The notes under the pieces were generated by a model. It did no database searches. It saw nothing but the letters and a program-made list of their open reading frames with translations, and was not told where the DNA came from. From positions 226,292 through 290,291 of the forward strand of contig JBBDRP010000002.1 of the NCBI GenBank assembly GCA_040905385.1: DNA of 64,000 nucleotides, in the 5' to 3' direction. Positions 19,738 to 63,070 of the stretch are shown piece after piece (position 1 is the first letter of the stretch; each line of letters begins with the position of its first letter). This DNA is from Minisyncoccota bacterium. Its GTDB lineage: Bacteria > Patescibacteriota > Minisyncoccia > Phycocordibacterales > SW-6-46-9. The translations under genes and the position numbers were made by a program.

Positions 19738-19768
19738 AACCCTCACCCAACCACCACCTCTACGTCTC

Positions 19769-19791
19769 GTAAGGATAACATCCTTGCAGAC
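19769..19791. repeat. REP-like hairpin copy 1 (GTAAGGATAACATCCTTGCAGAC) upstream of the HUH transposase
   Basis: Core palindrome AAGGAT-AAC-ATCCTT. The same 23-mer recurs at 20658-20680 and, with a perfect 12-bp stem, at 20531-20560. Confidence 0.8.
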
Positions 19792-19822
19792 ACTATAAGA
19801 TAAGCCTTAAATTCAACATTCT

Positions 19823-20503
19823 ATGCTTTTACACATTATAAAACGAGGAGGACGCGGCCTGCCGATTGTTGCGGATGACGATGATCGCTGGCGATATCTG
19901 AAATGTCTGTATTATCTAAATGATAAAAATCATCCGATAGGTTGGGAGCGTGATGTTGAAGCGCTTGGTTCTGGACTGCACTTTCAACGCCCGGAATCGT
20001 GGGGTGGTGAGCGCGATCCGTACGTCGATATCCTGTCGTACTGTCTGATGGATAATCATTACCATCTATTCGTTTCCGAGCGCGATGAGGGCATGATGGC
20101 GGCTTTTACGAGGTCGCTAAATAAAAGCATGTCGCAGGCCTATAATGAAAAGCAAGACACAAGCGGAAGTATCTTTCAAGGCCCGCCCAAGAAAAAGTTT
20201 GTTGAGGATGACGCCTACCTGAAATTCCTGTACGTCTATGTCAACGTCAAGAATCCCTTCGAGCGGTATCAGGGCGGCATTCGGAAGGCGATCGAGAATT
20301 TTGATGACGCCTGGGAGTTTGCGCTCGAATACGATTTCTCTAGCTTACCAGATTGTGCGGGTGACCGGGCGTCACCCATCGTGTCGCTGGATATATTTCG
20401 GGATGCATTTTCAAGCTCCGCCGAGTTCAAAGAGTTCGCCCGCGAGCAGATGCATCGGTACGGGCAGTTTCTGGAAGATGTCGATGCGGATGACTTAGAG
20501 TAG
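19823..20503 (+). CDS. tnpA: IS200/IS605-family / REP-associated (RAYT-like) HUH tyrosine transposase (Y1_Tnp)
   Basis: HuH motif MDNHYHLFV (nt ~20055-20080) and catalytic-Tyr region LYVYVNVKNPFE (compare E. coli RayT YIYINPVKHG). At 226 aa it is slightly longer than typical TnpA. Flanked by directly oriented REP-like hairpins. Confidence 0.7.
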   Translation: MLLHIIKRGGRGLPIVADDDDRWRYLKCLYYLNDKNHPIGWERDVEALGSGLHFQRPESWGGERDPYVDILSYCLMDNHYHLFVSERDEGMMAAFTRSLNKSMSQAYNEKQDTSGSIFQGPPKKKFVEDDAYLKFLYVYVNVKNPFERYQGGIRKAIENFDDAWEFALEYDFSSLPDCAGDRASPIVSLDIFRDAFSSSAEFKEFAREQMHRYGQFLEDVDADDLE

Positions 20504-20530
20504 AGAAAAGGACAGAGAGGGAGTGTCTCG

Positions 20531-20560
20531 GTGTCTGTAAGGATAACATCCTTACAGACT
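20531..20560. repeat. REP-like hairpin copy 2 with a perfect 12-bp stem, GTCTGTAAGGAT-AAC-ATCCTTACAGAC
   Basis: Read directly. 28 bp downstream of the transposase stop codon. Confidence 0.85.
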
Positions 20561-20655
20561 GAGGTTAGTAGAAATTCACAGGAATAGATGTCGAAAGTCG
20601 AGAATGTGGGTTAAAATGAAGGCTAAGTACGCGGTGGTTGCCCGGGGTCTAGGGT

Positions 20656-20683
20656 CTTGTAAGGATAACATCCTTGCAGACGA
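20656..20683. repeat. REP-like hairpin copy 3 (TTGTAAGGATAACATCCTTGCAGACGAG), same orientation as copies 1 and 2
   Basis: Near-identical to copy 1 including 4 flanking bases. 45 bp upstream of giant gene 3. Confidence 0.8.
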
Positions 20684-23700: not shown

Positions 23701-26700
23701 ATCTTAACCGCGGATATATGGAATCAGGTTGTAGCGGTTGTAAATGGTACTAGCGCAATTTTGTATCATAACGGTCAGGAGATAACTTCAGGAACAATCG
23801 ATGCATATACAGGTAATGGCAATAATATTGCTTTTGGTGATAAACCACTAAGTTCAGGGTCTAGCATGAATGCTCTTAATGGGTCTCTGGATGAAGTTTA
23901 TATTTACAATAGTTTATTGTCTACTGACTGGATTGCCGCCGAGTACACTAACCAGTCTACCACTACTGACTTCTACACCGTCGGTAGCCTGGAAGAGCCG
24001 AGCACCGTCTTTGGCGACGATACCGATGGTGACTTTGCTGACACCGACTGGACGTATCGCGAGAAGATCACCATCAACGCCGACCAGGTGGAGGAGACGC
24101 TGACCGACTTCCCGGTCTATGTTGATCTGTCTGATTTCGGATCACAGTTTTTCAACAATGTCCGCAGTGATGGTGGTGATATTCGCATCACCGCCAGCGA
24201 CGGCACGACCGAGCTGGCGAGGGAAGTCGTCTCTGTGGACACTGCCTCATCGACCGGGGAAATCCATTTCAAGGCCGACGAGATCGACGCCGAGGCCGAT
24301 ACCGACTTTTACATTTACTATGGCAATACCGCCGCGGTCGACTACGTCGTTACGGATACGTACGGCCGTAACGCGGTGTGGAGTAACGGCTATGCTGGAG
24401 TTTGGCACACAGGCGAAGACTCTGCTACACAAACGTTTGATTCTACTGGTAACAATAATACGGGAAACTTTCAGGATAACTTACCAACCACGCAGTCTGG
24501 AAAGATTGGAGATACGCAAGATTTTGATGGCACTAGTGATTATATTGATGCGGGTACTGACTCTAGCCTAGACATCACAACTGAAATCACGGTCGGTGTC
24601 TGGGTGAATCCTGATAATACTGGTGGTGACTATACAGGAATAGTAAATAAAAGCAGAGCAGATACGGCTGGTTTCTGGATGGGGTATTCAGCGAACGGTG
24701 ATATAGTTAGATGGGAGACTAATGATGCAGGAGGAAGTTGGCATGAAGTTGATATGCCTTTAATAGATGCCGAAGTAGGAGAATGGAATCACTTCGTAGG
24801 TGTTTATGATGGTAGTGAGCTTATAGGTTATAAAAATGGTTCTCAATCAGGAACTCCTGATAGTTTTACTGGAGAATTTGAAACTACAACTAATTCCCTA
24901 AAGTTTGGAGATTTTGAGGTTGCGGATAGATGGTTTGATGGCATGCTTGATGAGATTCGTATCTCCAGTGCTGCGCGCTCTGCCGACTGGATCGCCACCG
25001 AATACAACAACCAAAATGCTCCTAGTAGCTTCTACACCATCTCTGGCAGCCCTTCCGAAGCGCCGGTGCTGCTGACTCCGGAAGATACGGCCACCGAGGT
25101 GAGCCGGGCGCCGACGCTGGACTGGCAACCGGTCCAATCAGCTACCGAGTACCAGGTGCAGGTGTCGCCAACCTCGACCTTCTCATCTATCACGGTGGAT
25201 GCGAACGCAACCGACAGCGAGATAGCTCTGGGCACGCCGTATCCGTCATTGGATGCCAGCACAACCTATCACTGGCGCGTACGCACGGTGGATGGGCAGA
25301 GCTTCGGCGCCTGGTCCACCGACTTTTCCTTTACGACAGCTGCTGGTCTGGCCGGCAGCGGTACCGAGGCCGATCCGTACCTCATCAGTACTCCACAAGA
25401 CCTGGATGACATTCGCAATGACCTGGATGCCTACTACCGACTTACGCAGGATATTGATCTGACCTTTGATACACGGGATCCAAATGGAGATTTTTATAAT
25501 GCTGGTGATGGTTGGCAGGAAATAGATAACTTTGATGGTGAATTCGATATGGGTGGATATAGTATTATCGGAGCCCGAATTTTTAATGGATTTTTTGATA
25601 ACATTGGATCAAATGGGCTTATACATTCAGGAAAATTTGCCGATTGCGAAGTTCATGGAGGATATGATCAAGGAGTTATTAACGAAACAGGAGGGGCAGG
25701 ATTAATTAAAGAAGTTGTAGTAGATAATTGTTCTGTGGCGTCGGGCAATACTACAAGCCGTAGAATTGGTGGATTTAGCGGTAGAGGAATCTCTTCTCAG
25801 GATGTTATTTCACGTAATCTTGTGCTCGGTGGAGAAGGTGATAAGGGTGCAAACACTGGACGAGTTTTTGATACCAAGGTGTACACACGAAACCTCATTC
25901 ACAATGTGAGTTGGGAGGGTGTAAGTGGTCAAACTGAAAATCCTCTTTTTGGGTGGATTCAATCTGGTGGAAATCCGACGGTAAATGATGTGTTTTTTGA
26001 TGATGATACGCTTGATTATGCCGGAACTCGAACTGACCAAGGTACCGGGCTAACTACCACCGAGGCGCAGGATATTACTACGTATGAAAATGCTGGGTGG
26101 GACATCGTTCCGATTGCTCAGCACGACGGGCAGCGGTCAACAGCAATTTGGTACATCGATGATGGCAATGATTATCCACGTCTGTGGTTCGAGTACGAGG
26201 GTGAGGGCTGGAAAGATGGCTGGAGCCACCGTGAGAAGGTCACGATCAAGTCATCGGCGGTGGATGCGACGCTGGAAGACTTTCCGGTCTATGTCGACCT
26301 AGCTGATTTCGGCGCCACGTTCTTTAATAACGTCCGTACTGATGGTGGCGATATTCGTGTCACCAAGGCGGACGGTACTACCGAGCTGGCCCGGGAGGTT
26401 GTCTCGGTAGATACCGCCTCCTCGACCGGTGAGTTACACTTCAAGGCCGACCGCCTCGCCAGCACCACCGACACAACCTTCTACGTTTATTATGGTAATC
26501 CAGATGCGTCCGAGTACGCGACTGATTATGCGTATGGTCGCAATGTTGTCTGGAGCGATTATGAAAACGTCTACCACCTCGACGAGCAAGGAGACGGTAC
26601 CACCGGAGAGCATATCGACTCAGCCGGTAACCACGACCTGACGGCTGGATACTTTTCTGCTGGTATTCCGAATCGAGTTGATGGAAACCTCGGGTACGCG

Positions 26701-29700
26701 CAGCAGTTTAACGGAACTGATACATCAATTGGTGGTGTATTTAATCTGAGTGCTAAGGATGAAATGGTCGTGTCGGTATGGGCGCAACCAACGGCCAGCG
26801 GGCAGTCCAGCCGGTCGGGAATATTTGGATACAGTGAATATAACGTTAGTTCAGCCTATCGATTGGGTGGATTTAGATTTACAAGCAGTGATTTAGGTGG
26901 GCTTGATATCTATCTAGATGATGGAAGTGCCGAGTGGTTTAACTCCACACTGACACTGAATCTCAACCAATGGAATTACATGGTGGGTAGATTTGAATCA
27001 GGGGTTACAAAAGATATTCTTATCAATGACCAGTGGGATGAACGTACTGCACCGACAGGCAGTTTGGCAGCGGGGACCTCAAGCATAGCACTTGGTGAAG
27101 TGCAGGAAGATCCTGTGAACCGCCGATTTCAGGGGCTCATTTCCGAGGCTCGCTACAGCACCGTAAAGAGGAGCCAGGAATTTTATGCCGCTGAGTATAC
27201 GAACCAATCGACCACCACCGATTTCTATACGGTCGATACGACACCAATCCAGATTGACAGCATCGAGGATTTGGATGATGTACGCAACGACCTATCAGCC
27301 AGTTATGAGTTGACGCGCAACCTGGATTTCGACGACTGCGCCTCTTATGACACCTGTGCCAATATGGACACCTACACAACCGGCAGTGGGTGGGACCCAA
27401 TTGGCACGAGTGGCGACCCTTTTACAGGTCAATTTGATTTCAAAGGACACTCAATTACCGGATTAATGATAAATAGATCTAGCACCGACTATCAAGGACT
27501 TTTCGGGGCCTTGGGACTTGATGGTTATATTCATAGCGGTTCAATTATTAATGCAGATGTTATCGGTGAGAAACGTACTGCAGTACTTGTTGGTTTCATG
27601 GATGGAAATGCACTTGTCGAACATATTTCTATTAGGAATAGTACTGTTGGAGGGTCGTACAGTGGTAACAAGGGACTGTTAGTTGGATGGTTAAATAGCA
27701 CTACTTCTCTGATAAGAGATTCTTATGCTCAAGGGCAAGCAATTGTAGGTAATTATAGTGCTGCAGCTGGAGAAATACATCCTGTTGATGCTCAGTTTCC
27801 TTCTGAAAATCTTTACTTTGTCGGAACTCTTGATTATGGTGCCAGTAGCCCTGTTGGAGGTATTGATGCGGCAGATAATGCTTTAAATAGTTTTTATGAT
27901 CAGGATGTTGCAGGAGAAATTTTTGGAGCAGATCCAGGAAATGCAACAACAACGGTCATAATGCAGGACATTGATACGTATATTAATGCTGGCTGGGACA
28001 TCGTCCCGATCGAAGAGCATGACGGGCAGGAGTCGACGGCGACCTGGTTTATTGATGATGGTAATGACTATCCGAAGCTGTGGTTTGAACGCGAGGGGGC
28101 CCAAAGCACAGCGTTTGGCGACGACCCCGACGGCGACTTTGCCGACACCGACTGGAGCCACCGCGAGAAGATCACCATCAACCCCGACAAGGTGCCGACG
28201 GTTACAAGTAGCGTTAATTCGCGCGTCACGCAATCCAGTGATGATGCTGAGGAAAAGCTTTCCGATAATAGTATGCTTATCTCAAGTTCTGATCTTGAAC
28301 TTATCGCTGATGGCACGTCGCCTGGCGGCGATCAAGAGATCGGACTGCGTTTCCAGAACATTACTATTCCCCAGGGTGCCGTGATCACCAACGCCTACAT
28401 CGAGTTCCAGACCGACGAGACCAACAGCACTACCACCAACCTAACCTTCCGCGCGGAGGATAATAACGATACGACGACCTTTACTACCGGTAGTGGTGAC
28501 ATTACCAACCGATCCAAGACAGCCGCCTCGGTTGATTGGAACAACGTGCCGGCCTGGAATACGATTAGCGAAAAGCATCAGACCCCGGATCTGTCGGCGG
28601 TGGTGCAGGAGGTGGTTGATCGCGCCGGCTGGCAGAGTGGTAACGCGATGGCGATGTTTGTCACTGGTGACGGAACCCGGATTGCCGAGGCATATGATGG
28701 CGAGGCGGCCAATGCACCGCTGCTGCATATCGAGTACGAATCTCCAGCGGCAACCTTGACGGATTTTCCAGTTTATGTTGATCTGGCCGATCTGTCGGAT
28801 ACGTTTTTCGTCTACGTAGCAAATGACGGGGCGGACATCCGCGTGACGGCCGGTGACGGGCTGACCGAGCTTCCGCGGGAAGTCGTGTCTGTGGATAGCG
28901 TCGGGAAGACGGGTGAGCTGCACTTCAAGGCCGATGCAGTATACGGGTCGGTCGGGACTGAGTTCTACATCTACTACGGTAATCCGTTTGCTGTGAATTA
29001 TTCAGCCACGGATACGTATGGTGCTCAGAATGTGTGGAATAGTAATTATGTGTTGGTTAGCCATGATGGAGGTGCCACAGATTCAACAAGCAATGGAAAT
29101 AATGGAACTGCTAATGGTGATGCTACTGCAGGGATAGCTACTGGTAAAGTTGGTACTGCTGCAGAATTTGATGGAGTTAGTGATTCATTCCAGATAGCAG
29201 ACGACGCTTCGCTTGATACACCCTCCGCAATCACTATTACAGCTTGGGTAAATGCGAACTCATTCAAGTCTGACTTCAGCGAAATTGTTAGTAAGAAGTT
29301 TGATACTGGTTATGATTTCTTGGTCGACAATGATGCTGGCACAAACGATTTGGAATTCATAAGTTTTGATGCAGATATTCTTCAGTATTCCAACGATAAC
29401 GTGGTTGCCACTAGTACTTGGTCTCATGTGGCTGTTACATATGATAAATCAAATGTAAATTTTTATGCGGATGGCTCGTATGAAGGAGGCGGTGCAGAGA
29501 CGGCAGATATTGGTACGAATAATGAGGATCTGTATATCGGTAGCGATGCAGGTAATAGCTGGGAGTGGAATGGACTTATTGATGAAGTCAGGATACTCTC
29601 TAGTTCTCAATCTGCTGACTGGATTACAGTCGAGTATAATAACCAGTCGTCTCCATCCACCTTCTACTCTGTAGGTACGCAGGAGATTAGCGGCGAAGAC

Positions 29701-30423
29701 ACGATACCGCCGTATCCAGATCCGAGCGAGTTTGCCGTGGCACCAGATGGGGCCAGCACGTCGTCGATCACGATGACGGCTGCCACCTCTACGGACGGCG
29801 AGGGATCAACCCCGGTCGAGTACTACTTCAACTACCAGGCGTGTGCTGCCGATGCCGGCACCGGCTGGAGTCACTCTGGTTGGTTGGTGGAGACGTCGTA
29901 TACCGACGAGAATCTCCAGGTTAACCAGTGCTACAGCTACCGCGTAAAGACCCGGGATAGCCTGGGTAACGAGACGGCGTACTCGGCAACATCCAGTGCC
30001 TACACCGCCGCCGCAATTCCGGACGCGCCGTCACTTTCCAACCCGACGGAGACGACGCTGGACTTGGTGAACAATGAAGGTGCCAACCCAACCGCTAATC
30101 CCGACACCACCTTTGCGGTACAAGTCAGCGATACCTCACCAGGAGACCAGACCTGGACAAACCAGTACGTCAACGCCAGTGGTGAGCCGTCAGCCACCGC
30201 CGTCTGGCTGACAGACAGCCAGCTGAGCGGCTTGACGGTTACCATGCTGGAGCCGAACATCACCTACACCTTCCGCACCAAGGCTCGCAATGAAGACGGT
30301 GACGAGACCGGCTGGTCGGCGACAACCGTGGCCTCGACCTCGTCTGACTACCCAGATGAGACGGACACCTCAACCCGTCTGCGCGGCGGCTCGACCATCC
30401 GCGGTGGCAGCACAGCGCAGTAA
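20728..30423 (+). CDS. Giant (3231 aa) surface protein, paralogous to gene 2. Has an N-terminal TM anchor, at least seven DUF2341-like modules interleaved with LamG_3 domains, two FN3 domains and a distinct insert domain (nt ~28225-28745). C-terminus ends in ...LRGGSTIRGGSTAQ.
   Basis: Same module signatures as 13177-19737. Long near-identical stretches shared with gene 2 (e.g. AAGLAGSGTEADPYL.STPQDLDD.RNDL; TTAEAQDI.TY.NAGWDIVPI..HDG..STA.WYIDDGNDYP.LWFE). Terminal FN3: YYFNYQACAADAGTGWSHSGWL...YSYRVKTRDSLGNET. Confidence 0.85.
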   Translation: MMILEFYKKVKEFIGRHPRMVAVVGVTVAVLVILGSVGTQAAWYSSTGDGPTWQYRQKITIDADQVDAELTDFPVYVDLSDFGSDFFSNVAADGGDIRITTADGTTELAREVVSVDTASSTGELHFKADSLSASSDSEFFIYYGSSGASDYAVTDTYGRNAVWSDYRFVSHDAGYTDSSGALAQGTLFNGITPNDSAGIIGKATLFDKPSQQYVQLGDTIIPPSSDFTFDVWAEQFDFTGTTVSDESLILTQNDSGSTNATFVHGSNARQNHITGLWDINNSRTLEGPDIRGNGWVKLQIRRDGNEFNLFHNNVLQDATTTAITIPDAANAYLGAYENNGPERFFTGLISEVRSAYTARSDDWIATEYTNQNNTTDFYTIGAQDTQPDSNVAFGANSYGDFADTRWSHREKITIDAAQVDADLADFPVYVDLADLSTTFFQNTNVTCGDIRVTAGDGLTELAREVVACDTASSTGELHFKADSLSASSDTEFYIYYGNNSANNYIHDEQFGRDNVWSDGYAGVWHLSEGSGEARDSTANSSNGTNNGATQGVVGQVGGGYDFDGTDDYVKITENFVSSPSELTISAWFKKESGGDVYETVLHKGSADTVGSSDYWLGVSGDDNLTATIGANTGVGWDAGETTTSVNLGQWYHMAATWDGSVVEVYLDGQFNKQYSLSSYGDLNTDTRFGSSADGTNYQFRGTASEIRIYNKSISGDEISATYRNQNSPTTFYTVGVNEASAGLFGDNPSGDFADADWGYREKITIDADQVGATLTDFPVYVDLSNLSATFFDNVTASGGDIRVTAGDGTTQLAREVVSVNTASSTGELHFKADSISSTTDTSFYIYYGNPNADDYAVGDTYGAENVWSNETLAAFHLEENAVNSSDDNFNGTINGSPAWVTGVIYSALDFLGTNGNNVEISSALQSDITNNSYTVKAWINPRLTGSSNQAIIDTGSEGDGQMRFFMNDTDGSFKIQNTASFTGTGVRSSAGILTADIWNQVVAVVNGTSAILYHNGQEITSGTIDAYTGNGNNIAFGDKPLSSGSSMNALNGSLDEVYIYNSLLSTDWIAAEYTNQSTTTDFYTVGSLEEPSTVFGDDTDGDFADTDWTYREKITINADQVEETLTDFPVYVDLSDFGSQFFNNVRSDGGDIRITASDGTTELAREVVSVDTASSTGEIHFKADEIDAEADTDFYIYYGNTAAVDYVVTDTYGRNAVWSNGYAGVWHTGEDSATQTFDSTGNNNTGNFQDNLPTTQSGKIGDTQDFDGTSDYIDAGTDSSLDITTEITVGVWVNPDNTGGDYTGIVNKSRADTAGFWMGYSANGDIVRWETNDAGGSWHEVDMPLIDAEVGEWNHFVGVYDGSELIGYKNGSQSGTPDSFTGEFETTTNSLKFGDFEVADRWFDGMLDEIRISSAARSADWIATEYNNQNAPSSFYTISGSPSEAPVLLTPEDTATEVSRAPTLDWQPVQSATEYQVQVSPTSTFSSITVDANATDSEIALGTPYPSLDASTTYHWRVRTVDGQSFGAWSTDFSFTTAAGLAGSGTEADPYLISTPQDLDDIRNDLDAYYRLTQDIDLTFDTRDPNGDFYNAGDGWQEIDNFDGEFDMGGYSIIGARIFNGFFDNIGSNGLIHSGKFADCEVHGGYDQGVINETGGAGLIKEVVVDNCSVASGNTTSRRIGGFSGRGISSQDVISRNLVLGGEGDKGANTGRVFDTKVYTRNLIHNVSWEGVSGQTENPLFGWIQSGGNPTVNDVFFDDDTLDYAGTRTDQGTGLTTTEAQDITTYENAGWDIVPIAQHDGQRSTAIWYIDDGNDYPRLWFEYEGEGWKDGWSHREKVTIKSSAVDATLEDFPVYVDLADFGATFFNNVRTDGGDIRVTKADGTTELAREVVSVDTASSTGELHFKADRLASTTDTTFYVYYGNPDASEYATDYAYGRNVVWSDYENVYHLDEQGDGTTGEHIDSAGNHDLTAGYFSAGIPNRVDGNLGYAQQFNGTDTSIGGVFNLSAKDEMVVSVWAQPTASGQSSRSGIFGYSEYNVSSAYRLGGFRFTSSDLGGLDIYLDDGSAEWFNSTLTLNLNQWNYMVGRFESGVTKDILINDQWDERTAPTGSLAAGTSSIALGEVQEDPVNRRFQGLISEARYSTVKRSQEFYAAEYTNQSTTTDFYTVDTTPIQIDSIEDLDDVRNDLSASYELTRNLDFDDCASYDTCANMDTYTTGSGWDPIGTSGDPFTGQFDFKGHSITGLMINRSSTDYQGLFGALGLDGYIHSGSIINADVIGEKRTAVLVGFMDGNALVEHISIRNSTVGGSYSGNKGLLVGWLNSTTSLIRDSYAQGQAIVGNYSAAAGEIHPVDAQFPSENLYFVGTLDYGASSPVGGIDAADNALNSFYDQDVAGEIFGADPGNATTTVIMQDIDTYINAGWDIVPIEEHDGQESTATWFIDDGNDYPKLWFEREGAQSTAFGDDPDGDFADTDWSHREKITINPDKVPTVTSSVNSRVTQSSDDAEEKLSDNSMLISSSDLELIADGTSPGGDQEIGLRFQNITIPQGAVITNAYIEFQTDETNSTTTNLTFRAEDNNDTTTFTTGSGDITNRSKTAASVDWNNVPAWNTISEKHQTPDLSAVVQEVVDRAGWQSGNAMAMFVTGDGTRIAEAYDGEAANAPLLHIEYESPAATLTDFPVYVDLADLSDTFFVYVANDGADIRVTAGDGLTELPREVVSVDSVGKTGELHFKADAVYGSVGTEFYIYYGNPFAVNYSATDTYGAQNVWNSNYVLVSHDGGATDSTSNGNNGTANGDATAGIATGKVGTAAEFDGVSDSFQIADDASLDTPSAITITAWVNANSFKSDFSEIVSKKFDTGYDFLVDNDAGTNDLEFISFDADILQYSNDNVVATSTWSHVAVTYDKSNVNFYADGSYEGGGAETADIGTNNEDLYIGSDAGNSWEWNGLIDEVRILSSSQSADWITVEYNNQSSPSTFYSVGTQEISGEDTIPPYPDPSEFAVAPDGASTSSITMTAATSTDGEGSTPVEYYFNYQACAADAGTGWSHSGWLVETSYTDENLQVNQCYSYRVKTRDSLGNETAYSATSSAYTAAAIPDAPSLSNPTETTLDLVNNEGANPTANPDTTFAVQVSDTSPGDQTWTNQYVNASGEPSATAVWLTDSQLSGLTVTMLEPNITYTFRTKARNEDGDETGWSATTVASTSSDYPDETDTSTRLRGGSTIRGGSTAQ

Positions 30424-30452: not shown

Positions 30453-30481
30453 TTAGAGGTAAGAGCTAAGAGACATGATAT

Positions 30482-30886
30482 ATGAGCAAAGAACCCAAAA
30501 AGGAGAACAAAATTACATCATTCACTGATCTGACAACGTGGCAAAAAGGCCATGAACTAGTAGTGGAGATTTATGAGACAACCGAGGAGTTTCCTAAGCG
30601 AGAGGTGTATGCGCTTACCGACCAAATTCATCGATCGGCTGTATCAGTTACTTCCAACATTGCTGAAGGGTTTGGTCGTTTTAGCTACGCCGATAGACTA
30701 CATTTTTACCGCATGGCTCGTGGATCACTGACAGAATTACAGAATCAACTCTTGATTGCTCGTGATGTTGGGTATCTCGGCACGGACAAATTTAAAGCCT
30801 TGGCAAGTAAAACCACTACGGTAGAGAAATTACTACAAGGCTTGATTCGAGCCACGAGTGATAGGAAAGATTCACATACCTCTTAG
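30482..30886 (+). CDS. Four-helix-bundle protein (23S rRNA intervening-sequence protein family, TIGR02436-like)
   Basis: ...TDLTTWQKGHELVVEIYETTEEFPKREVYALTDQIHRSAVSVTSNIAEGFGRFSYADRLHFYRMARGSLTELQNQLLIARDVGYL... matches the family pattern (W..A..L...IY.....FP..E...L..Q..R...SI..NIAEG). Confidence 0.75.
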   Translation: MSKEPKKENKITSFTDLTTWQKGHELVVEIYETTEEFPKREVYALTDQIHRSAVSVTSNIAEGFGRFSYADRLHFYRMARGSLTELQNQLLIARDVGYLGTDKFKALASKTTTVEKLLQGLIRATSDRKDSHTS

Positions 30887-31033
30887 CTCTTGTCTCTTGG
30901 ATGTGAAATGCTCTGATATATGTGATTTTGCTACAATGCATAGGAATCGCAGGTGTGGATAGTAAAACCTGTACCTCTGTTATACTAAAGGAGTAGCTTT
31001 TTTTAACTAACTCTTTATATGATGTAAGCCTAT

Positions 31034-33631: not shown

Positions 33632-33769
33632 AGTAGAAAGCCGAAAGTTCAAAGTCTGTAAAGTCATAAAGGATCTTTACAAAATATAGCCGTGACGGCA
33701 TACTCACTCTCTCGATTTATAAGGAAAATCTAATTGCAACTTTTAACTTTTTACTTTTGACTAATTTTT
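33632..33769. repeat. ~135-bp intergenic element, copy 1. Has inverted AAAGTC/ACTTT-rich arms (GTAGAAAGCCGAAAGTTCAAAGTCTGTAAAGTC ... AACTTTTAACTTTTTACTTTTGAC) and a conserved core GGAAAATCTAATTGCAAC.
   Basis: Homologous to 37010-37129 (core GAAAAATCTAATTGTAAC, arms GTCGAAAGTCTAAAGTCAAAAGTCGTAAAGTT / AACTTTCGACATTTGACTTTTAGC). Immediately upstream of the GH15 start. Confidence 0.7.
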
Positions 33770-33772
33770 AAT

Positions 33773-35779: not shown

Positions 35780-37000
35780 CTACAGCGTATCGACAATTGG
35801 AAGGGCAAGTAACCCACCAACTAAGAGCAGGCCGGCGACACCAACAAAGATAAACTCAAACGGTGCAAAGAGAAGTACTGCACTTGCCAGTACCGGAGCA
35901 ACAATATATGCAAGTGGTCTGATCATTCTCAGGACAGACAACTCATCGGTGTCATAACTTTCGACATGCTTAAAGAAGTAGCCGTCGGACATGACTTCGA
36001 TCATAGTGGCGCCGATACGAGTTCCAAATAGCAGAGCTGCCCATACCCAGATCTCGGTGCTCTCTACAAAGCCCAGTAGAGCGGTAAAGAAGGCAGCAAT
36101 GATAAATCCACCGATTAGGAGTTCCTTTTCACCAAGATAGTGGTCAGCGATCTCTCCGAGAGGACGACCCAGTAAGACAAAGGGAATTAGCATAATAGAA
36201 AAGATAATTCCAATAGCACTAAAGGAGAGACCGATGAATTGGTAGAGGTAGATTGGGGTGTATACGACCATCATGGCGTAAAACATATTCAGTACGAGCA
36301 TAGTTCCAAGTGTAAAACGGACGTTTACATCGCGCCAGACTCTTTTGAGACTTTTCCAGAGCGTTGTGCGGGCATAATCAGCGTCGGGGAAGTTACTGAA
36401 CTTCTTTAGAAGAATCGTTAGCAGCGGCAGAATAACAACAGCTGAAATTAGATAAATCTGCCAGAAGGTATCCTCACCGACGGCGAATCCGGCAATCAGC
36501 GGTCCTAGAATGAAGGCGATGTAGGTAAGAGTAATCAAGGTTCCGCGAATCTCGCCTGTCTTGGAATCATCAGAAAATTTCTCTAAAAATATATCTAGGT
36601 TAAAGCGAATCACGGCGGTAAGCATCCAGTGTGCCATGAAGGCAGTGATAAGCAGCCAGATAGGAGCGCTTTGGATAGCCAAAATACTCACGGCGATTAG
36701 TTCTGCAATTACCAGAGCAAGCGTAGTAGCATAGTTACCAAACTTCGGTAGCGCTCGGGTAACAGCAGACATGGTCATGATTGCCAGCACAGCCGCGGCG
36801 CTAAAGGCGATACTGGTTGATGTCTCGGAAAGTATGGTGTTCAAAAAGTTGGAGTTAATGTACAGCGGAAAGACGTAATGCAGCGTAAAGAAGAAGTACA
36901 TGATGTACACCACAACTCGCAGCTCCTCAGGGGAATCTGGCTTATCCTCGGTATCCTCAGTCCTTGTGCGTTTGAGATGGAATGGTACGTGAATTTGCAT
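35780..37000 (-). CDS. Polytopic membrane transporter, probably MFS family
   Basis: 406 aa with ~11-12 hydrophobic helices. No specific family motif recognised. Confidence 0.6.
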   Translation of the reverse strand: MQIHVPFHLKRTRTEDTEDKPDSPEELRVVVYIMYFFFTLHYVFPLYINSNFLNTILSETSTSIAFSAAAVLAIMTMSAVTRALPKFGNYATTLALVIAELIAVSILAIQSAPIWLLITAFMAHWMLTAVIRFNLDIFLEKFSDDSKTGEIRGTLITLTYIAFILGPLIAGFAVGEDTFWQIYLISAVVILPLLTILLKKFSNFPDADYARTTLWKSLKRVWRDVNVRFTLGTMLVLNMFYAMMVVYTPIYLYQFIGLSFSAIGIIFSIMLIPFVLLGRPLGEIADHYLGEKELLIGGFIIAAFFTALLGFVESTEIWVWAALLFGTRIGATMIEVMSDGYFFKHVESYDTDELSVLRMIRPLAYIVAPVLASAVLLFAPFEFIFVGVAGLLLVGGLLALPIVDTL

Positions 37001-37009
37001 ATTTAAAAG

Positions 37010-37129
37010 AGTCGAAAGTCTAAAGTCAAAAGTCGTAAAGTTTAACGTTCATAATATCACGCCTCCAGTTTGGATTTATTAGAAAAATCTAATTGTAACT
37101 TTCGACATTTGACTTTTAGCTTTTAACTT
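37010..37129. repeat. ~135-bp intergenic element, copy 2 (see 33632-33769)
   Basis: Same arm and core sequences as copy 1. Lies immediately upstream (on the minus strand) of the MFS start. Confidence 0.7.
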
Positions 37130-37158
37130 AACTTGTTCTTACCTAGTATAACAAAAAA

Positions 37159-37187
37159 CCTGGGAACATAATGTTCCCAGGTTTTTT
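37159..37187. terminator. Bidirectional rho-independent terminator
   Basis: AAAAAA-CCTGGGAACAT-AA-TGTTCCCAGG-TTTTTT: a 10-bp GC-containing stem flanked by an A-run and a T-run. Confidence 0.8.
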
Positions 37188-37199
37188 AAATAACTCACC

Positions 37200-37830
37200 G
37201 GGTTGAGTTATTTAGCCAGCGTGAAGGATGGCCAGTATTTATCTATTACAAAAGCCGCCATCTTCTCGATAGCGGCTTTCTCGAACGACTTGAATGAGCA
37301 CCCGATATCTCTTGCTGCTAAGCAGGAAGAGAACGGTTGTGCGAATTTACCCGCACACTCGAAGCTTCGAGTGTTAGCTGGCAAAGCCAGCGCGGGTTTA
37401 TGTCCGGAAATTATATGTAATTTCCCTGGACCAAGTCGGCGGGTAAAGCGAGCGCTTCGACTTGCGGAGTGCTCGCGGCTTCCGAAGTCAAGACTTCTTA
37501 TCTTGTTATTTGATTAGCGAAGTCGAGCGACTCAAGTCGGCGGAATAAGCTTGGTGCCGTGGAGTACACGGTGCCAAGCGGCTTAGGGAGTTTAAGTAGC
37601 AATCTGGCGAACTGTTAATTACTCGAAGGACTCAAGTCCGCACGAGTGCTCGCAAATCACAAAACTTTGTAGATAGCGTAGACATGAAGCGAGCTGAAAA
37701 TCTTCGACACAGTAGTGCGAAGATTTCAGTGAGCCAACACTAAGGATGGAATGGATCATATCGAACTATTGATTAATCCAACGCCTCAAGGCGGTAAAAA
37801 TTGTCGGAAATTACATTCTGTTGTAGACTG
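37200..37830. ncRNA. Candidate large structured non-coding RNA region (~630 bp, ORF-free, dense hairpins). Strand and identity unknown.
   Basis: Only a spurious 104-aa ORF. Contains a perfect 20-nt palindrome ACACTCGAAGCTTCGAGTGT (37355-37374); a 12-bp stem CTTGGTGCCGTG-GAGUA-CACGGTGCCAAG with two G-U wobbles (37550-37578); GTCCGGAAATTA-TATG-TAATTTCCCTGGAC; CTGAAAATCTTCG...CGAAGATTTCAG; and repeated words AAGTCGGCGG, CTCAAGTC, GAGTGCTCGC. Confidence 0.3.
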
Positions 37831-37831
37831 C

Positions 37832-39589
37832 CTATACTCCGATAACCACCGGAATCACAAGCGGTTCCTTGCCCGTCTCCTGTCGGAGGTAGCTGCGGGT
37901 TCGTTCGGTTAGCTTGCTCTTTACGTAGTCAAAGTTAACTGACTTACGGCCTTTAGCAGCCTCCTCGACAACATTGCGAACGAGGTCACGTGTGTCGGAA
38001 AGAAGTTTCTTGCTTTCTCGGAGATAGACAAATCCGCGGCTGATAAGATCCGGAGACTTACGCAGCTTCCCGTTCTTTGGGTTAATGGCCACGATTATTA
38101 CGAAGATACCTTCAGTCTGTAGTATTTCGCGATCACGGATGACAACATCCTGAATGTTACCAATACTGAGTCCATCAACGGTAAGTGTCTCTCCAGCGGC
38201 CTTTTGCGGCAGCTTTTCGAACTTTGTACCGTTCTCTTTAATTTCCACAATGGATCCATTCTCGGGAACAATTACGTGATTATCTGGCATACCAAGATCC
38301 TTGGTAGCTAGCTTCTTGTGCAGCTCGAGCATATAACGGTTTCCGTGCTGTGGCATGAAGAATTTTGGCTTCAGCATTTCGTGCAGCCAACGAATTTCAC
38401 CACGGTTTCCGTGTCCGGAAGCATGAACGTGTAGGTCAGTGGTTTTTGAGGTAATGATATCGGCACCCGAGGCCGCAATGTTGTCCTTTAGTGATGCCAC
38501 TGCTTTTTCGTTTCCAGGTACAACCGACGCAGATAGTACGACAGTGTCCTGCCCGTTAAAGGCTAGATGATGGTGGGTCTGGTTTGCCATACGGTTGAGG
38601 GCGGCAAATTCCTCTCCCTGTGATCCGGTAGCAAGAATCAAAATCTCGTTTGGTTGGTAGTTATCGACATCCTTGCCTTGAATAAATATGCCATCTGGTG
38701 CCTTGATGAGCCCGGCTTCCTGCGCAACAGCAACGTTCGTACGCATGGATCGACCTTCAAGTACGACTTTGCGGTTGTACTGACCAGCCAAATCAATAAT
38801 TCGTGCCATACGTTCGATTAGCGAGGCGAAGGAGGCAATGATCAGTCGTCCGTGCGTCTGCTGGAAGATTTTTTCTAGGTCGCGGTGTACCTTCCATTCC
38901 GGTACTCCGAATCCAGGATTCTCAATGTTAGTGGAGTCCATCATCAGCATCAGAACATCCTTCTCGGCGACTTTTTTGTATACTTGCTGCTCTTTCTCGG
39001 AAACAGTTCCATCCACGTGGTCCAGCTCGAAGTCGGCCTGGTTGATAATCTGTCCGTATGGTGTGTCGATGATGACACCCATAGAGTCAGGAATTGTGTG
39101 TGCCATCTCATAGAATCGTACTGGTGTGCTACCGAGCGTGATTTCATCCTCACCCGTAACGACATGAATATCAAGTGGTTCGTTGTCAGGAAATTCTTCC
39201 TGACGCTTTAAAATCATCAGTTTAGAAAAACTGCGACAGTAAATTGGAGGATTGCCGATACGATCCATAATATAGGGAATACCACCGATGTGGTCGAGGT
39301 GACCGTGAGTGATGACGAGACCGCGAATTTTATCTTTGTGCTCCTCGAGGTAACGAGTATTTGGAAGCACATAATCAATTCCAGGTAGATCTTCACTTTC
39401 AAAGCTGTATCCGCAGTCGATGATAATGATGTCATTGGCTGTCTCTATCATGGCCATGTTGCGTCCGACCTCCTCGACTCCGGACAGCGGAATGATGCGA
39501 ATGTCTCCTTCGGCGACTTCAGGAATTGGATCGCCTTTGCGTTCATCTAATTCTCTGTGTTGTAGATTGGTAGTTGTGTATCGTCCCAT
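37832..39589 (-). CDS. rnj: Ribonuclease J (metallo-beta-lactamase / beta-CASP RNase)
   Basis: ...IIPLSGVEEVGRNMAMIETANDIIIIDCG...LVITHGHLDHIGGIPY... HxHxDH motif and beta-CASP layout, 585 aa. Confidence 0.9.
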   Translation of the reverse strand: MGRYTTTNLQHRELDERKGDPIPEVAEGDIRIIPLSGVEEVGRNMAMIETANDIIIIDCGYSFESEDLPGIDYVLPNTRYLEEHKDKIRGLVITHGHLDHIGGIPYIMDRIGNPPIYCRSFSKLMILKRQEEFPDNEPLDIHVVTGEDEITLGSTPVRFYEMAHTIPDSMGVIIDTPYGQIINQADFELDHVDGTVSEKEQQVYKKVAEKDVLMLMMDSTNIENPGFGVPEWKVHRDLEKIFQQTHGRLIIASFASLIERMARIIDLAGQYNRKVVLEGRSMRTNVAVAQEAGLIKAPDGIFIQGKDVDNYQPNEILILATGSQGEEFAALNRMANQTHHHLAFNGQDTVVLSASVVPGNEKAVASLKDNIAASGADIITSKTTDLHVHASGHGNRGEIRWLHEMLKPKFFMPQHGNRYMLELHKKLATKDLGMPDNHVIVPENGSIVEIKENGTKFEKLPQKAAGETLTVDGLSIGNIQDVVIRDREILQTEGIFVIIVAINPKNGKLRKSPDLISRGFVYLRESKKLLSDTRDLVRNVVEEAAKGRKSVNFDYVKSKLTERTRSYLRQETGKEPLVIPVVIGV

Positions 39590-39768
39590 AATTTATTAGC
39601 TTCGAGCTCTTAGCTTTTAGCTTATAAGTTAGATCTAGACTGTTTTGGTTATCAGCTAGATTTTGAATAATAATGCGAATTGAACAAACTCGCGGGATAC
39701 AGGAACAATGTTTTGATCCCGTATCGGCGGGCTCATTTTTTGGTTTGTACGTTCGTTGACCCCTTTGT

Positions 39769-41751: not shown

Positions 41752-42018
41752 GTAGGTAGTATTGTAGCAGATGTGAATTTATTTACAACAGCGGTCGTTC
41801 GCACTCCTCCTTTGTGTGCGCACGAATAAACCACGCATTACGCGTGGTTTTTCTCTGCTCGTCCCGCTTTAGCGGGACTGTGCAAGGCTTCACAAAGGAG
41901 AGTACTCACTTAGTAGTACATTTCCAATCTTTTGTAATATAAATAGATTCAGGAAGGAGGTGCGCATATTACGTATTTATAAGCCTGCAATTTTAATTGC
42001 AGGCGCTCTTAAAGCGAA

Positions 42019-42147
42019 CCCACTCCTTCTCAGCTACCTCTCGGAGGCTGATTTGCTCGGTTTCTTCTTTTTGAAGAAAAATCAGCCGAGAGTGAGCGCA
42101 ATTTCTCGCTGGAGAAATTGACGCGTGTATGCTGAGAAGGTAGTGGG
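42019..42147. repeat. ~130-nt compound hairpin structure. Outer inverted repeat CCCACTCCTTCTCAGC / GCTGAGAAGGTAGTGGG encloses two stable inner hairpins (CTCTCGGAGGCTGATTT...AAAATCAGCCGAGAG and GCGCAATTTCTC-GCTG-GAGAAATTGACGCG).
   Basis: Read directly. Lies between secG (-) and the groES promoter. No ORF. Confidence 0.6.
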
Positions 42148-42158
42148 TGAGCGCCCAC

Positions 42159-42187
42159 TTGAAACGGAAGAGCGTGGCGCGTATAAT
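42159..42187 (+). promoter_or_regulatory. Sigma70-type promoter TTGAAA-N17-TATAAT for groES-groEL. An inverted repeat CTGCACT-N19-AGTGCAG (42192-42224) in the 5' UTR is a candidate operator.
   Basis: Consensus hexamers at optimal spacing ~100 bp upstream of the groES ATG. The IR is not a canonical CIRCE. Confidence 0.5.
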
Positions 42188-42290
42188 GTGCCTGCACTAA
42201 TGAATTCTGTAGTTGACAGTGCAGCCACTATATCGACCGCGTGTGGTCGGTAATTTATGATTATTAAAGACGTTAAAAATACAAAAAACT

Positions 42291-42617
42291 ATGGCAAAGA
42301 AAAAGAATCCTGTTGGAATTAAACCGCTTGCCGACCGAGTCTTGATACGAGAAGAGACGGCAGACGAAGGAGAGAAAAAGACGGAGTCAGGAATCATCAT
42401 TCCAGATACGGTTGGCGATGACAACGCTCGTGGTGCTAATCGCGGTGAAGTTGTGGCAGTTGGTGACGGAAAGGTTGATGACGATGGAAAGAAGCTCGAG
42501 ATTCCCGTAAAGGCTGGCGACATTGTTATCTTTAGCTGGGGTGAGCAGCTAACGATTGATGAGATTGATTACCACCTTGTTGATCAGAGCAATATTCTTG
42601 CAGTAGTTGAGGGGTAG
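42291..42617 (+). CDS. groES: Co-chaperonin GroES
   Basis: IKPLADRVLIR...ESGIIIPDT...GEVVAVGDGK... Confidence 0.95.
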   Translation: MAKKKNPVGIKPLADRVLIREETADEGEKKTESGIIIPDTVGDDNARGANRGEVVAVGDGKVDDDGKKLEIPVKAGDIVIFSWGEQLTIDEIDYHLVDQSNILAVVEG

Positions 42618-42651: not shown

Positions 42652-44304
42652 ATGTCTAAAAACGTTATCTTTCATGAGGAGGCACGTCAGAAGCTGATGG
42701 CTGGAATCGACAAGGTTGCGAATGCGGTAAAGGTGACGATTGGTCCGCGTGGACGCAATGTTGTACTGGATAAGGGCTACGGAGCGCCGACCATTACTAA
42801 TGATGGAGTTTCCATTGCTAAGGAAATTTCGCTCAAGAACAAGTTCGAAAACATGGGGGCCGAGATTATCAAGGAGGTAGCCGAGAAGACCAACACGGCA
42901 GCTGGTGACGGAACCTCGACAGCCACGATTCTGGCTCACGCCATTATGACCGAGGGGCTGAAGCGAACAACGCTCGGTGCCAATGCAATGGTGATTCGTG
43001 AGGGTATCGAGGAGGCCGCTCGTGACGCGGTAGAGGAGCTAATGAAGACGGCGACCAATGTACGCGGTGACGACATTCAGCGTGTGGCAGCTATCGCTGC
43101 CGAGAGCGAGAAGCTTGGTGAAATCATTGCCGACACGATGGAGAAGGTCGGCAAGGACGGTGTGGTGACGGTAGAGGAGTCACGTACCACCGGACTGTCT
43201 TCGGAGGTGGTTGAGGGACTAGAGTTTGATAAAGGATTTGTGTCACCGTACATGGTGACCGATTCAGAACGTATGGAGGCGGTGTATGAAGACACGGCGG
43301 TGCTGGTAACCGACCAGAAGATCTCAAGTGCTAAGGATATTCTACCACTGCTGGAGAGTCTGGCACAGGGAGGCCAAAAGGAGCTGGTGATTATCGCTGA
43401 TGATATTGAGGGCGAGGCACTAGCGACGTTTGTGGTTAACAAGCTTCGCGGTGGATTTAACGTGCTGGCTATCGAAGCACCTGGGTTTGGTGACGCCAAG
43501 AAGGATCGACTCGAGGATATTGCGACGGTCGTTGGTGCGCAGGTTATCTCAGAAGATCGTGGACACTCGCTGGACAAGGCAACCGAGTCAATGCTCGGAA
43601 AGGCCGGAAAGATTATTGCCTCAGAAGACAAGACAACCATCGTAGGAGGCGCAGGAACCAAGAAGGATATCGAGGCCCGTGCCGAGAAACTTCGCACGCA
43701 GGCCGAGCATGCTGATGCATCTTATGCTCGTGAGAAGCTCGAAAAGCGTGCCGCTGCATTGACCGGTGGAGTGGCGGTAATCCGGGTTGGTGCTGCTACC
43801 GAGACCGAGATGAAGTATCTCAAGCTGAAGATCGAGGATGCGGTGAATGCTACCAAGGCCGCTATTGAAGAAGGGGTCGTTGATGGTGGTGGAGCCGCGT
43901 TGGTAAAGATTGGCAAGAAGCTTCGCGACAAGCTCGAGAAGATGGATGCCAATGATGATCACAAGGTTGGGTACATGATTCTTACCCGCGCGCTGGACGC
44001 ACCGTTCAAGCAGATTGTTCAGAACGCCGGAAATGAAGAGGCGTCGGCCGTGCTGCATGACGTTCGTATCGGCAAAAAAGGATACGATGCCAAGAACAAC
44101 GTGATTGTAGACAACATCTCCTCAGCTGGAATTATTGATCCGGCTAAGGTGGTGCGAACGGGAATCGAGAACGCTGCCTCTGCAGCCGCAATTCTCCTGA
44201 CTACGGAGGCGGCAGTTGCTGAAGACCCAGACGATGATGATGATCAGCAGGGTGGCGGTGGCATGCCGGGTGGAATGGGTGGCGGTATGCCGGGTATGAT
44301 GTAG
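42652..44304 (+). CDS. groEL: Chaperonin GroEL (C-terminal GGM repeat)
   Basis: ...[17 protein letters not shown]...[13 protein letters not shown]... and C-terminal [16 protein letters not shown]. Confidence 0.97.
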
Positions 44305-44366
44305 TAAAAATCTATGGCGGACAGTGATCCGCAGACACTCTTGCGCGCTTGAGCGCTTCGAGAAAG

Positions 44367-44398
44367 CCACCGTCTCTGCGACGGCGGCTTTTGTTATT
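44367..44398 (+). terminator. Probable groEL terminator hairpin
   Basis: AAAGCCACCGTC-TCTGC-GACGGCGGCTTTTGTT. Confidence 0.55.
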
Positions 44399-44399
44399 A

Positions 44400-44680
44400 A
44401 ACTATCTACAACAGATAGTGATGGGAGAACGTAGTTGACGGCTTGAGCCGTTGGATTGATTGGTAGTCGAGCCAGGAAAGCCGCCAGCACTCCGCCAGTC
44501 GGAGCACTGGCTTATAACCGAATGGTTTGGGAAAATAGCCGTCTCCTGGACGGTCATTTTTGTTATCGGATAACCAGTAAGGTTTTACACTGGAAACCAC
44601 AAAATCTGCGGAAGGTCTTACAGAAAGCAGGTACTCGTTCGTATTGCGAAAAGACCGCCGGTTGACGGTCTTTTTTTAAT
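44400..44680 (+). ncRNA. Candidate ORF-free transcript (~270 nt) ending in a strong terminator; possible small RNA or leader
   Basis: No ORF of 60 aa or more on the + strand. Internal hairpin GCCAGCACTCCG-CCAGT-CGGAGCACTGGC with a symmetric 2x2 internal loop. Terminator AGACCG-CCGGTTGA-CGGTCT-TTTTTTT at 44650-44678. Confidence 0.35.
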
Positions 44681-54921: not shown

Positions 54922-54949
54922 CGTAAATACCAATCTTTTGCGTGCGCAC

Positions 54950-54975
54950 AAATAAATCCCTGCGAGGATTTTTAT
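54950..54975 (+). terminator. Weak hairpin + T-run after nrdA (AAATCCCTGCGAGGATTTTTA)
   Basis: 5-6 bp stem. Confidence 0.35.
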
Positions 54976-55062
54976 CCGCTCAGGCGCTCAGTTTGATAGA
55001 AATCGGACATCATACTGAGCGCCTTGCGCAAGGCTCCGAAAAAGAGGTATTTACTCAGTTCA

Positions 55063-55093: not shown

Positions 55094-55396
55094 AAAGGAA
55101 GTCCGAACAAAACAAGGTGCTCGCATTGAAGTTTCTTGCCTAATCTATAGTTATGTTACTCGGCTTCGTCTCTTTAAGTAAAGCTAAGAAGTATCCCTGT
55201 GCTGAAGCTAGAACAGTACATAGATAAGAGGTAATTTTTGCCCAAAAAACGACCCAGAACGGCTATTTATTTTGGTTGAAAAAAGTCGATATTGAATTAT
55301 TCCATCTTATTTTTAGAGATGTTTTTTATAGCCAGCTACTGCGCACTAGTTAAACGATATCTTTTACAAATATGCAATTAAGGTTTTTGTTTAGCA

Positions 55397-63015: not shown

Positions 63016-63043
63016 CTCGTACCCCTGTTTTGCTTCGGCACGA

Positions 63044-63070
63044 AAAGACGCCCAGCGGGCGTCTTTTCTC
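63044..63070 (+). terminator. Rho-independent terminator
   Basis: AAGACGCC-CAGC-GGGCGTCTT-TTCT. Confidence 0.7.

Follow-up and report, generated by a model that had tools for sequence, protein, structure and literature searches.

The gene-free stretch downstream of rnj

Directly downstream of rnj, in a 64,000-nucleotide stretch of a Minisyncoccota contig (hereafter the window), lies a region of about 630 nt that is packed with hairpins (37200-37830). The rnj open reading frame (ORF) runs from 39589 to 37832 on the minus strand and encodes RNase J (Pfam RNase_J_b_CASP, 2.8e-43; RNase_J_C, 1e-23; Lactamase_B). The protein is identical to P0001, annotated 'ribonuclease J', from a metagenome-assembled genome (MAG) labelled Candidatus Paceibacterota, where it is encoded on a 784-kb contig, and is 75% identical to the RNase J of a MAG labelled Candidatus Saccharibacteria. 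The stop codon, TAG, occupies 37834-37832 and the structured element starts 4 nt downstream; the next gene, on the same strand, encodes an MFS transporter by Pfam match (35780-37000). An earlier note on this DNA had read the region as a candidate large ornate noncoding RNA (ncRNA) of the OLE/GOLLD/ROOL type or, alternatively, as an autoregulatory structure in the rnj 3' untranslated region (UTR). We find instead that the 630-base stretch consists of small hairpin modules, repeated and piled up in a strain-specific manner, and is not one conserved large RNA.

The basic description given in the earlier note holds. The stretch is delimited by the rnj stop on one side and by a strong terminator (37153-37187) on the other, and no credible ORF is present within 37188-37831. 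The longest candidate, 37203-37517 on the plus strand, encodes 104 amino acids from a TTG start, and ARAGORN detected neither a tRNA nor a tmRNA in the stretch. A decayed gene or a small coding sequence could explain this ORF, along with a 150-aa ORF called automatically on the homologous stretch of a related locus (L011; loci of relatives carry L numbers throughout). However, the 104-aa ORF has no Pfam match and no relative among 5.8 billion proteins, and it resembles the 150-aa ORF only where the underlying DNA is 93% identical, with an odd composition. Two shorter ORFs (58 and 46 aa) gave empty Pfam scans, the short ORFs scanned are not conserved, and the 46-aa ORF has no ribosome-binding site by eye. 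A coding origin is thus very improbable.

The density of structure is also as described, and the stretch folds far better than shuffled sequence. A perfect 20-nt palindrome lies at 37355-37374 (inverted repeat I10), short words recur internally (GAGTGCTCGC twice, D9; CAAGTCGGCGG twice, D2; the TCGAnnGACTCAAGTC family four times, D1), and the flanking bidirectional terminator is a perfect inverted repeat of 17+17 nt at 37153-37187 with A/T runs on both sides (I2). A simple terminator consensus scan listed no site in the stretch; it probably missed the terminator at 37153-37187 because the T-run sits within the extended stem. Folding of 686 nt gave -251.9 kcal/mol for the minus strand (z = -14.6 against shuffles) and -275.6 kcal/mol for the plus strand (z = -11.0). 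The 300-nt halves of the target had z values of -3.4 to -6.6, about -6 on the rnj-sense strand, while for most 300-nt coding windows of the same contig z stayed between about -1 and +1, with extremes of -2.9 and +1.7. A 12-bp stem at 37550-37578, previously described as carrying compensatory G-U pairs, is real, but those pairs exist on the plus-strand reading only; on the rnj-sense strand both fall in a 2x2 C-A/A-C internal loop, a conserved part of a hairpin module that recurs.

No match to known structured RNAs

Searches against Rfam 15 provided no support for a large ncRNA. No family reached its gathering score within 37200-37830, be it OLE, GOLLD, ROOL, HEARO, raiA or any other of the 4227 models, and in the whole window three tRNAs were the only matches at that score. 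At E<=10, weak matches across 36950-37950 clustered on the terminator at 37150-37190, and nothing credible was found inside 37200-37830; PK-repBA, for example, reached 17.6 bits in the target against a gathering score of 45. The groEL flank described below and four relatives likewise had no matches, either at the gathering score or at E<=10. The likeness of the stretch to OLE, GOLLD, ROOL, HEARO and raiA lies in its size (~600 nt), stem density and absence of ORFs. Those RNAs keep a fixed multi-stem architecture over many taxa, whereas the architecture of the target varies by strain and is built of repeated modules. Literature searches brought up no account of an element of this kind from Saccharibacteria or Patescibacteria.

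Several other known elements were considered and rejected. The operator of HrcA, CIRCE (controlling inverted repeat of chaperone expression; TTAGCACTC-N9-GAGTGCTAA), has no match at <=3 mismatches in the window; the GCAC hairpins described below read AGCACTC-N9-GAGCACT, with 6 mismatches to CIRCE in the best copy by manual count. A Cas12a repeat shares the word CUGUUGUAGA on the plus strand, but its 5' hairpin arm is missing by eye. By eye, too, the R''/R' boxes of an integron attC site do not fit, and the flanking stem of a T-loop or tRNA-like fold is absent. There is no similarity to coding DNA in the window of the kind that a diversity-generating retroelement template repeat would show.

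A unit of about 95 nt follows rnj and groEL

The length of the stretch is explained by duplicated modules of a unit whose simplest form is ~95 nt long and, when the spacers are read side by side, is clearest in L016 and L018. After the stop codon and 4-6 nt come a AUCUACAA box, a fixed-length spacer of ~35 nt and a 4-bp hairpin with a YUGA loop (DNA spelling CUUGAG), followed by the linker UUCGRGAAA, a GC-rich terminator hairpin and then UUUUGU. Longer units have two insertions between the small hairpin and the terminator: a linker of UUGGAUUAAUC type and the 'GCAC' hairpin, an interrupted hairpin with GCAC conserved on both arms.

We built two covariance models, R1 (small hairpin, linker and terminator) and R2 (box, spacer and small hairpin). 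R1 recovers copies at 57-83 bits, with one exception at 41.5 bits (groEL unit 2), and R2 at 64-78 bits; the models also find copies outside the training sets. Matches in the target lie at 37306-37241, 37833-37771 and 37679-37617. The other site in the window is the 3' flank of groEL (44305-44570), and in the relatives matches occur only directly after rnj or groEL stops (L011, L016, L018, L019, L107 and L112). There is no other R1 or R2 match in 240 kb, comprising the whole 64-kb window and the relatives. Every copy is in the sense of the gene upstream, with its U-tract on that strand.

At groEL, two units stand in tandem directly downstream of the stop codon (44302-44304), both on the plus strand. 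Unit 1 (44305-44401) is a plain ~95-nt unit (R2 68.9 bits, R1 78.3 bits), whereas unit 2 (44399-44570; R2 69.0 bits) includes a GCAC hairpin at 44483-44511. Behind them, at about 44650-44680 on the same strand, lies an older, conserved groEL terminator (AAAGACCGCC...GACGGTCTTTTT). The unit also follows groEL in L018, L107 and L112. This distribution bears on the second proposal of the earlier note: the element is located where an rnj 3' UTR would be, and the looser notion of a structured rnj 3' UTR is supported, but the presence of the unit behind groEL as well weakens the case for an autoregulatory role specific to rnj.

Anatomy of the rnj array

Read from the rnj stop codon on the minus strand, the array opens with 5' part A (37771-37833; R2 65.6 bits; alignment A9, 10 copies). 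It comprises the box GUCUACAA (37828-37821), the ~35-nt fixed-length spacer, the small hairpin hp1-A (CGCC-UUGA-GGCG, 37793-37782) and UUGGAUUAAUC. The remainder of unit A (37674-37770) has no homolog in the relatives by blastn; local minimum free energy folding places a hairpin at 37780-37752 and a long 12-bp hairpin within 37742-37674. In the second 5' part, B (37617-37679; R2 75.2 bits; alignments A5 and A6), the box reads AUCUACAA (37674-37667), and the spacer leads to hp1-B (GGAC-UUGA-GUCC, 37639-37628). The ortholog of part B is the unit directly after the L011 rnj stop, and part B is 81% identical to L011 1905-1963.

Two GCAC hairpins and a third YUGA hairpin follow. GCAC hairpin B (37549-37579, minus strand; CUUGG-CA-CCGUG-UACUC-CACGG-CA-CCAAG; alignment A8) is the 12-bp stem discussed above, and MAFFT grouped it with its counterparts in L011, L018 and the groEL unit. 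The third YUGA hairpin, hp1-C (37528-37539, minus strand; CGAC-UUGA-GUCG), belongs to repeat family D1 (alignment A7). GCAC hairpin C with its flanks (37437-37481, minus strand) contains the hairpin GCGAG-CA-CUCCG-CAAGU-CGAAG-CG-CUCGC at 37476-37448. The region is 93% identical to L011 1997-2042, and a 24-mer within it is 92% identical to window positions 44478-44501, in the groEL flank, with a compensatory G-C to C-G change.

Module D (37298-37436, minus strand), defined from alignment A4 and local folds, consists of a hairpin at 37431-37402 and a closed domain at 37342-37298. It is homologous to L019 3028-3130, from which its stems differ by compensatory changes. In the window it is split by a three-way hairpin of 49 nt (37397-37349) that is unique and includes the perfect 20-nt palindrome. 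The core (37241-37306, minus strand; R1 67.1 bits, E 4e-16; alignment A3) has a degenerate small hairpin (UCAUUCAAGUCG), the linker UUCGAGAAA, a terminator hairpin at 37279-37251 and the U-tract UUUUGU. Last comes the distal tail (37152-37240, minus strand), with small hairpins at 37234-37213 and 37212-37189 and the older bidirectional terminator at 37187-37153. Distal terminators comparable to this one stand behind the unit in L016 and L019, and L001 has a lone terminator.

Two sites thus have the makeup of an intrinsic terminator, with a GC-rich stem-loop and then a U-run, downstream of a gene: 37279-37251 with UUUUGU and 37187-37153 with UUUUUUGU, both on the rnj strand. These assignments come from reading the sequence and from R1, and termination at either site is a prediction. 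In total the array spans about 590 nt, with 5' parts and GCAC hairpins in two copies each, YUGA hairpins in three, module D and a single terminator core; we estimate that modules of the family account for at least 70% of the region.

Compensatory changes in the modules

The helices of the modules are kept by compensatory changes, as expected under selection on pairing. In the core alignment (A3), 94.8% of cells are paired, both sides have changed in 9 of 16 pairs, none of 500 shuffles was as good, and no slid register approached the true pairing. The YUGA hairpin, with 14 copies (A7), has 92.9% of cells paired and three of its four pairs covary, while the loop and 3' flank are constant. For the GCAC hairpin (A8) the corresponding values are 97.5% of cells and both-side changes in 7 of 10 pairs, with the 2x2 C-A/A-C internal loop invariant. 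The 35 nt from box to hairpin align without gaps in nine of ten copies, the tenth having a single-base insertion, and show no consensus structure across the 10. These values come from few sequences and from alignments some of which were fitted to structure, and pairing would be kept equally in single-stranded DNA.

Such folding and covariation, both very strong, would also be expected of one or more structured RNAs that act independently, either as a large ncRNA or as small RNAs processed from the 3' UTR; they would work in trans, with the repeated YUGA hairpins binding a protein, for instance. Sequence is conserved in the 5' box, the YUGA loop, the linker (UUCGRG or UUGGAU) and the internal loop of the GCAC hairpin while the stems vary, which is typical of recognition sites, and the 5' part has a near-constant length across 10 copies. 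Against this explanation, the whole architecture is not conserved even in close relatives, several strains dispense with the element, Rfam holds no match and a promoter scan was at background. A promoter formed by the stop codon and AT-rich bases seemed possible in some copies and was rejected as inconsistent across copies. We therefore regard independent action as rather improbable.

The orthologous site in relatives

Spacers between rnj and the MFS gene were collected from strains with RNase J 75-90% identical to that of the window. Where the protein is 90% identical (L003-L010), the spacer is about 120 bp long and holds an unrelated plain terminator. At 86% identity (L013-L015) it holds a 23S_rRNA_IVP/bAvd-like gene, and at 75% (L001) a terminator directly follows the stop codon. 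In L011, L016, L018 and L019 (RNase J 86-88%) the spacer measures 153-646 bp and has stretches in common with the target; their versions of the element, of 100-500 nt, contain only some of its modules. The architecture expected of a generic conserved ncRNA at the orthologous site is therefore absent in L001, L003-L010 and L013-L015 and only partially represented in L011, L016, L018 and L019. The earlier note had looked to covariation and conservation in relatives as a check on its reading. Compensatory changes do maintain several hairpins, both in relatives and among the paralogs; the overall architecture is absent or partial. Since the 630-nt architecture is not conserved across strains, these data argue against a single large ncRNA.

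A selfish repeat as the main rival

This patchy distribution is also what a selfish or neutral non-autonomous repeat would produce, and a purely selfish repeat is the main rival to the explanation that we favor. Elements of the type of a MITE (miniature inverted-repeat transposable element), a repetitive extragenic palindrome (REP) or a palindrome-associated transposable element (PATE) would insert behind stop codons and nest within themselves, and the RNA structure would be a by-product of DNA palindromes. Presence and absence differ among close strains, and the units sit between the stop codon and the older terminator. The 49-nt hairpin insertion in module D is absent from L019 and is bounded by TAAA...TAAA. 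The palindromes are near perfect with few G-U pairs, both strands fold about equally, and a second flank element (see below) stands behind different genes in different strains.

Other observations are harder to reconcile with such a repeat. Only two loci are occupied, the same two in all carrying relatives, with no further copy in the 240 kb searched, and copies diverge by compensatory changes instead of being near-identical. We found neither a significant terminal inverted repeat or 5'-3' closure nor a clear target-site duplication, with no pair of empty and filled sites that could be aligned precisely. Pairing of the 5' box with the 3' tail was no better than in shuffles in most of 11 units; the corresponding panhandle of the AUCUACAA box with a UUGUAGAU-like tail, plausible by eye, was rejected on this ground. 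Searches of phage and plasmid collections with blastn found no match to the element, and a scan of viral contigs with the pattern CTTGAGNNNTTSGRGAAAN{20,32}TTTTGT gave one chance match, at 20.4 bits; the metagenome scan with this pattern, given below, did no better.

A weak RAYT-like gene (REP-associated tyrosine transposase) in the window, at 19823-20503, would suit the selfish explanation, but the palindrome on its flanks is another one, which the target lacks. Its 226-aa product scores 20.6 bits with the IS200-like Y1_Tnp (cut-off 23) and 14.9 with REP_Tyr_transpos (cut-off 80). Three palindromes of the form GTAAGGATAACATCCTT(G/A)CAGAC, at 19769, 20537 and 20659, flank the ORF (19764-20682) in an arrangement that resembles REP-RAYT. 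Membership of the target in a REP/RAYT system was rejected: across the window and the relatives' loci the flanking palindrome GTAAGGATAACATCCTTRCAGAC occurs only around the RAYT-like ORF, and the target modules occur at two loci only. Overall, we consider a selfish or neutral repeat possible but unlikely.

Turnover and exchange of 3' flanks

Elements in 3' flanks come and go in this lineage and are also swapped. Strains with an identical GroEL protein differ in the flank of its gene, with the unit in L107, L108 and L111 and another flank in L109 and L110, and older terminators persist behind the units at both the rnj and the groEL loci. Within one genome, the copies at rnj and at groEL are mutually inverted and only 7 kb apart, which makes gene conversion between them plausible.

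A second, unrelated structured 3'-flank element, recognized by the shared word GAAGTCCGAACAAAACAGAGTACTCG, has a copy in the window at 63013-63165 on the plus strand, after a glutaredoxin-like ORF. Over 141 nt this copy matches the 3' flank of groEL in L109 (4169-4307) at 78% identity. Further copies lie in the window at 55098-55135 and 44629-44674 (both partial) and in L013 at 514-390; the element has no Rfam match at the gathering score. Its position after different genes in different strains indicates that flank elements have been exchanged within the lineage.

In L116, a more distant relative whose GroEL is 79% identical, the 3' spacers of rnj and groEL are again long, at 237 nt (5124-5360, minus strand) and 296 nt (11675-11970, plus strand). 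Neither matches R1 or R2, and a different repeat (GAAGTACTC...GAGTG) is common to the two. It may thus be a recurring feature that rnj and groEL have a family-specific 3' flank in common.

Other features of the window and its relatives

Genes similar to 23S_rRNA_IVP/bAvd occupy differing intergenic sites by strain, flanked by inverted periodic low-complexity repeats of the AAAGTC, AAGAGC or CCTAAC type. The stretches concerned, genes or flanks, are 37010-37128 and 30457-30902 in the window, 6153-6228 and 6543-6566 in L003, and 4759-5261 in L013. An intact cassette of this kind is present in the window at 30482-30886, and upstream of the MFS gene lies a gene-less miniature of the flanks of the L003 cassette. 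A 30-nt sequence (GATTTATWAGRAAAATCTAATTGYAACTTT) at 37073-37102 is 90% identical to 33714-33743; the two copies stand upstream of the MFS gene and of a GH15 glucoamylase-like gene, and may represent a common operator for a sugar regulon. The leaders of rnj (39590-39640), the MFS gene (37001-37050) and the GH15 gene (33745-33772) contain A-rich repeats of 6-7-nt period, of AAGCTAA or AAAGTC type.

Beyond these, the divergent secG/groES region (41790-41945, plus strand, and 42001-42300) is strongly structured, with z = -6.7 for 42001-42300. It shares the sequence TTTG(T/C)GTGCGCAC(G/A)AATAAA, together with hairpins, with the flank of a ribonucleotide reductase gene (54925-55060, plus strand). 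Directly after a ribonucleotide reductase gene is a GIY-YIG endonuclease-like ORF (57835-58161). The window also contains three giant ORFs, at 2138-13117 (3659 aa), 13177-19737 (2186 aa) and 20728-30423 (3231 aa).

Interpretation

The explanation that we favor, and consider probable by a modest measure, is that the stretch is a rapidly evolving mosaic of duplicated and rearranged, lineage-specific, terminator-associated hairpin modules, most likely forming the rnj 3' UTR. The orientation of the copies, each of them in the sense of the gene upstream and with its U-tract on that strand, leads us to assign the element to the transcripts of rnj and groEL and to take the rnj-sense strand to be the one transcribed. 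RNA polymerase would read from rnj across the whole array to the predicted terminators at 37279-37250 and 37187-37153. The stacked stable hairpins would act as a terminator and as a block to 3'-to-5' exonucleases, in the manner of BOX-type elements and of REP sequences in bacterial interspersed mosaic elements (REP/BIME). Position, orientation, hairpin stability and the REP/BIME precedent are all consistent with this proposed role in termination and 3'-end protection. In addition, the conserved loop and linker sequences may be recognized by a protein or an RNase. The size of the array could change through local duplication and through recombination between the inverted rnj and groEL copies.

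Several points weigh against this explanation. A role in termination or stabilization leaves the AUCUACAA box, the fixed unstructured spacer and the YUGA loop unexplained. The evidence comes from about 10 independent copies in a narrow clade, and the two loci were counted within 64 kb of a 784-kb contig and the loci of relatives. A metagenome scan with the pattern CTTGAGNNNTTSGRGAAAN{20,32}TTTTGT returned 87 matches, all scoring <=29.6 bits with R1 and thus attributable to chance. Transcription, its strand and its 3' ends are predictions from sequence. Folding energy and G-U counts do not tell the strands apart, with 643 pairs (69 G-U) on the sense strand and 625 (53 G-U) on the antisense strand, and in the target alone the antisense strand folds slightly better. 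Moreover, the C-A/A-C internal loops would become G-U pairs on the antisense strand, so the strand is inferred.

Comparison with better-known systems suggests that the family is new to Rfam and of a kind already familiar. BOX elements of Streptococcus pneumoniae share its modular build, boxA-boxB(n)-boxC corresponding to a 5' module, variable internal hairpins and a 3' module. They are also alike in strong folding, an intergenic position beside genes and strain-variable size, and in co-transcription, which is probable for the present family. An A-B(n)-C build with variable internal modules is indeed seen here, at two loci within the 64 kb of the contig examined. BOX, however, has more than 100 dispersed copies, the two share no sequence relationship, and the rnj/groEL family differs from BOX in having an intrinsic terminator as its 3' module and a start at a fixed distance after the stop codon.

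REP/BIME hairpins of enterobacteria stall 3'-to-5' exonucleases and stabilize the upstream mRNA, and the family resembles these elements (and enterobacterial repetitive intergenic consensus sequences, ERIC) in being a mosaic of short, GC-rich hairpins located in 3' UTRs. REPs occur in high copy number, have a GTAG/CTAC tetranucleotide beside the stem and are tied to a RAYT transposase. The copy number seen here is low, and the CTAC of the 5' box lies ~30 nt from the nearest stem. Plain Rho-independent terminators have the same GC-rich hairpin and UUUUGU in the sense of the upstream gene, and the UUUUGU tail is also found on unrelated terminators of the same genomes. Such terminators nevertheless need no box, fixed spacer, YUGA hairpin or UUCGRGAAA linker, nor a second terminator behind them.

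These additional parts could be accounted for by a more ambitious proposal, which we regard as rather improbable. The units might be an undescribed class of stop-codon-proximal RNA signals in Patescibacteria, also known as the candidate phyla radiation (CPR), read by an RNase or RNA-binding protein that sets mRNA processing or lifetime. Such a signal would combine the AUCUACAA box and the fixed spacer with two hairpins, the YUGA hairpin plus its UUCGRG linker and the GCAC hairpin containing the C-A/A-C loop. If this were true, the signal would mark a small set of mRNAs that includes groEL and rnj itself, creating an autoregulatory loop, and the 590-nt rnj array would be a multivalent binding platform and not junk.

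The mosaic reading has consequences of its own. It removes a tempting false lead, in that an OLE- or GOLLD-like stretch in a reduced CPR genome turns out to consist of small modules amplified in one strain. A family absent from Rfam now has two working covariance models and clear covariation, and it marks the 3' ends of the housekeeping genes rnj and groEL. Together with the second, exchanged flank element, it suggests that ultrasmall genomes retain and shuffle structured elements in their terminator regions. If the conserved loops are recognition sites, they would offer a handle on the control of mRNA decay in a group in which post-transcriptional regulation is barely known.

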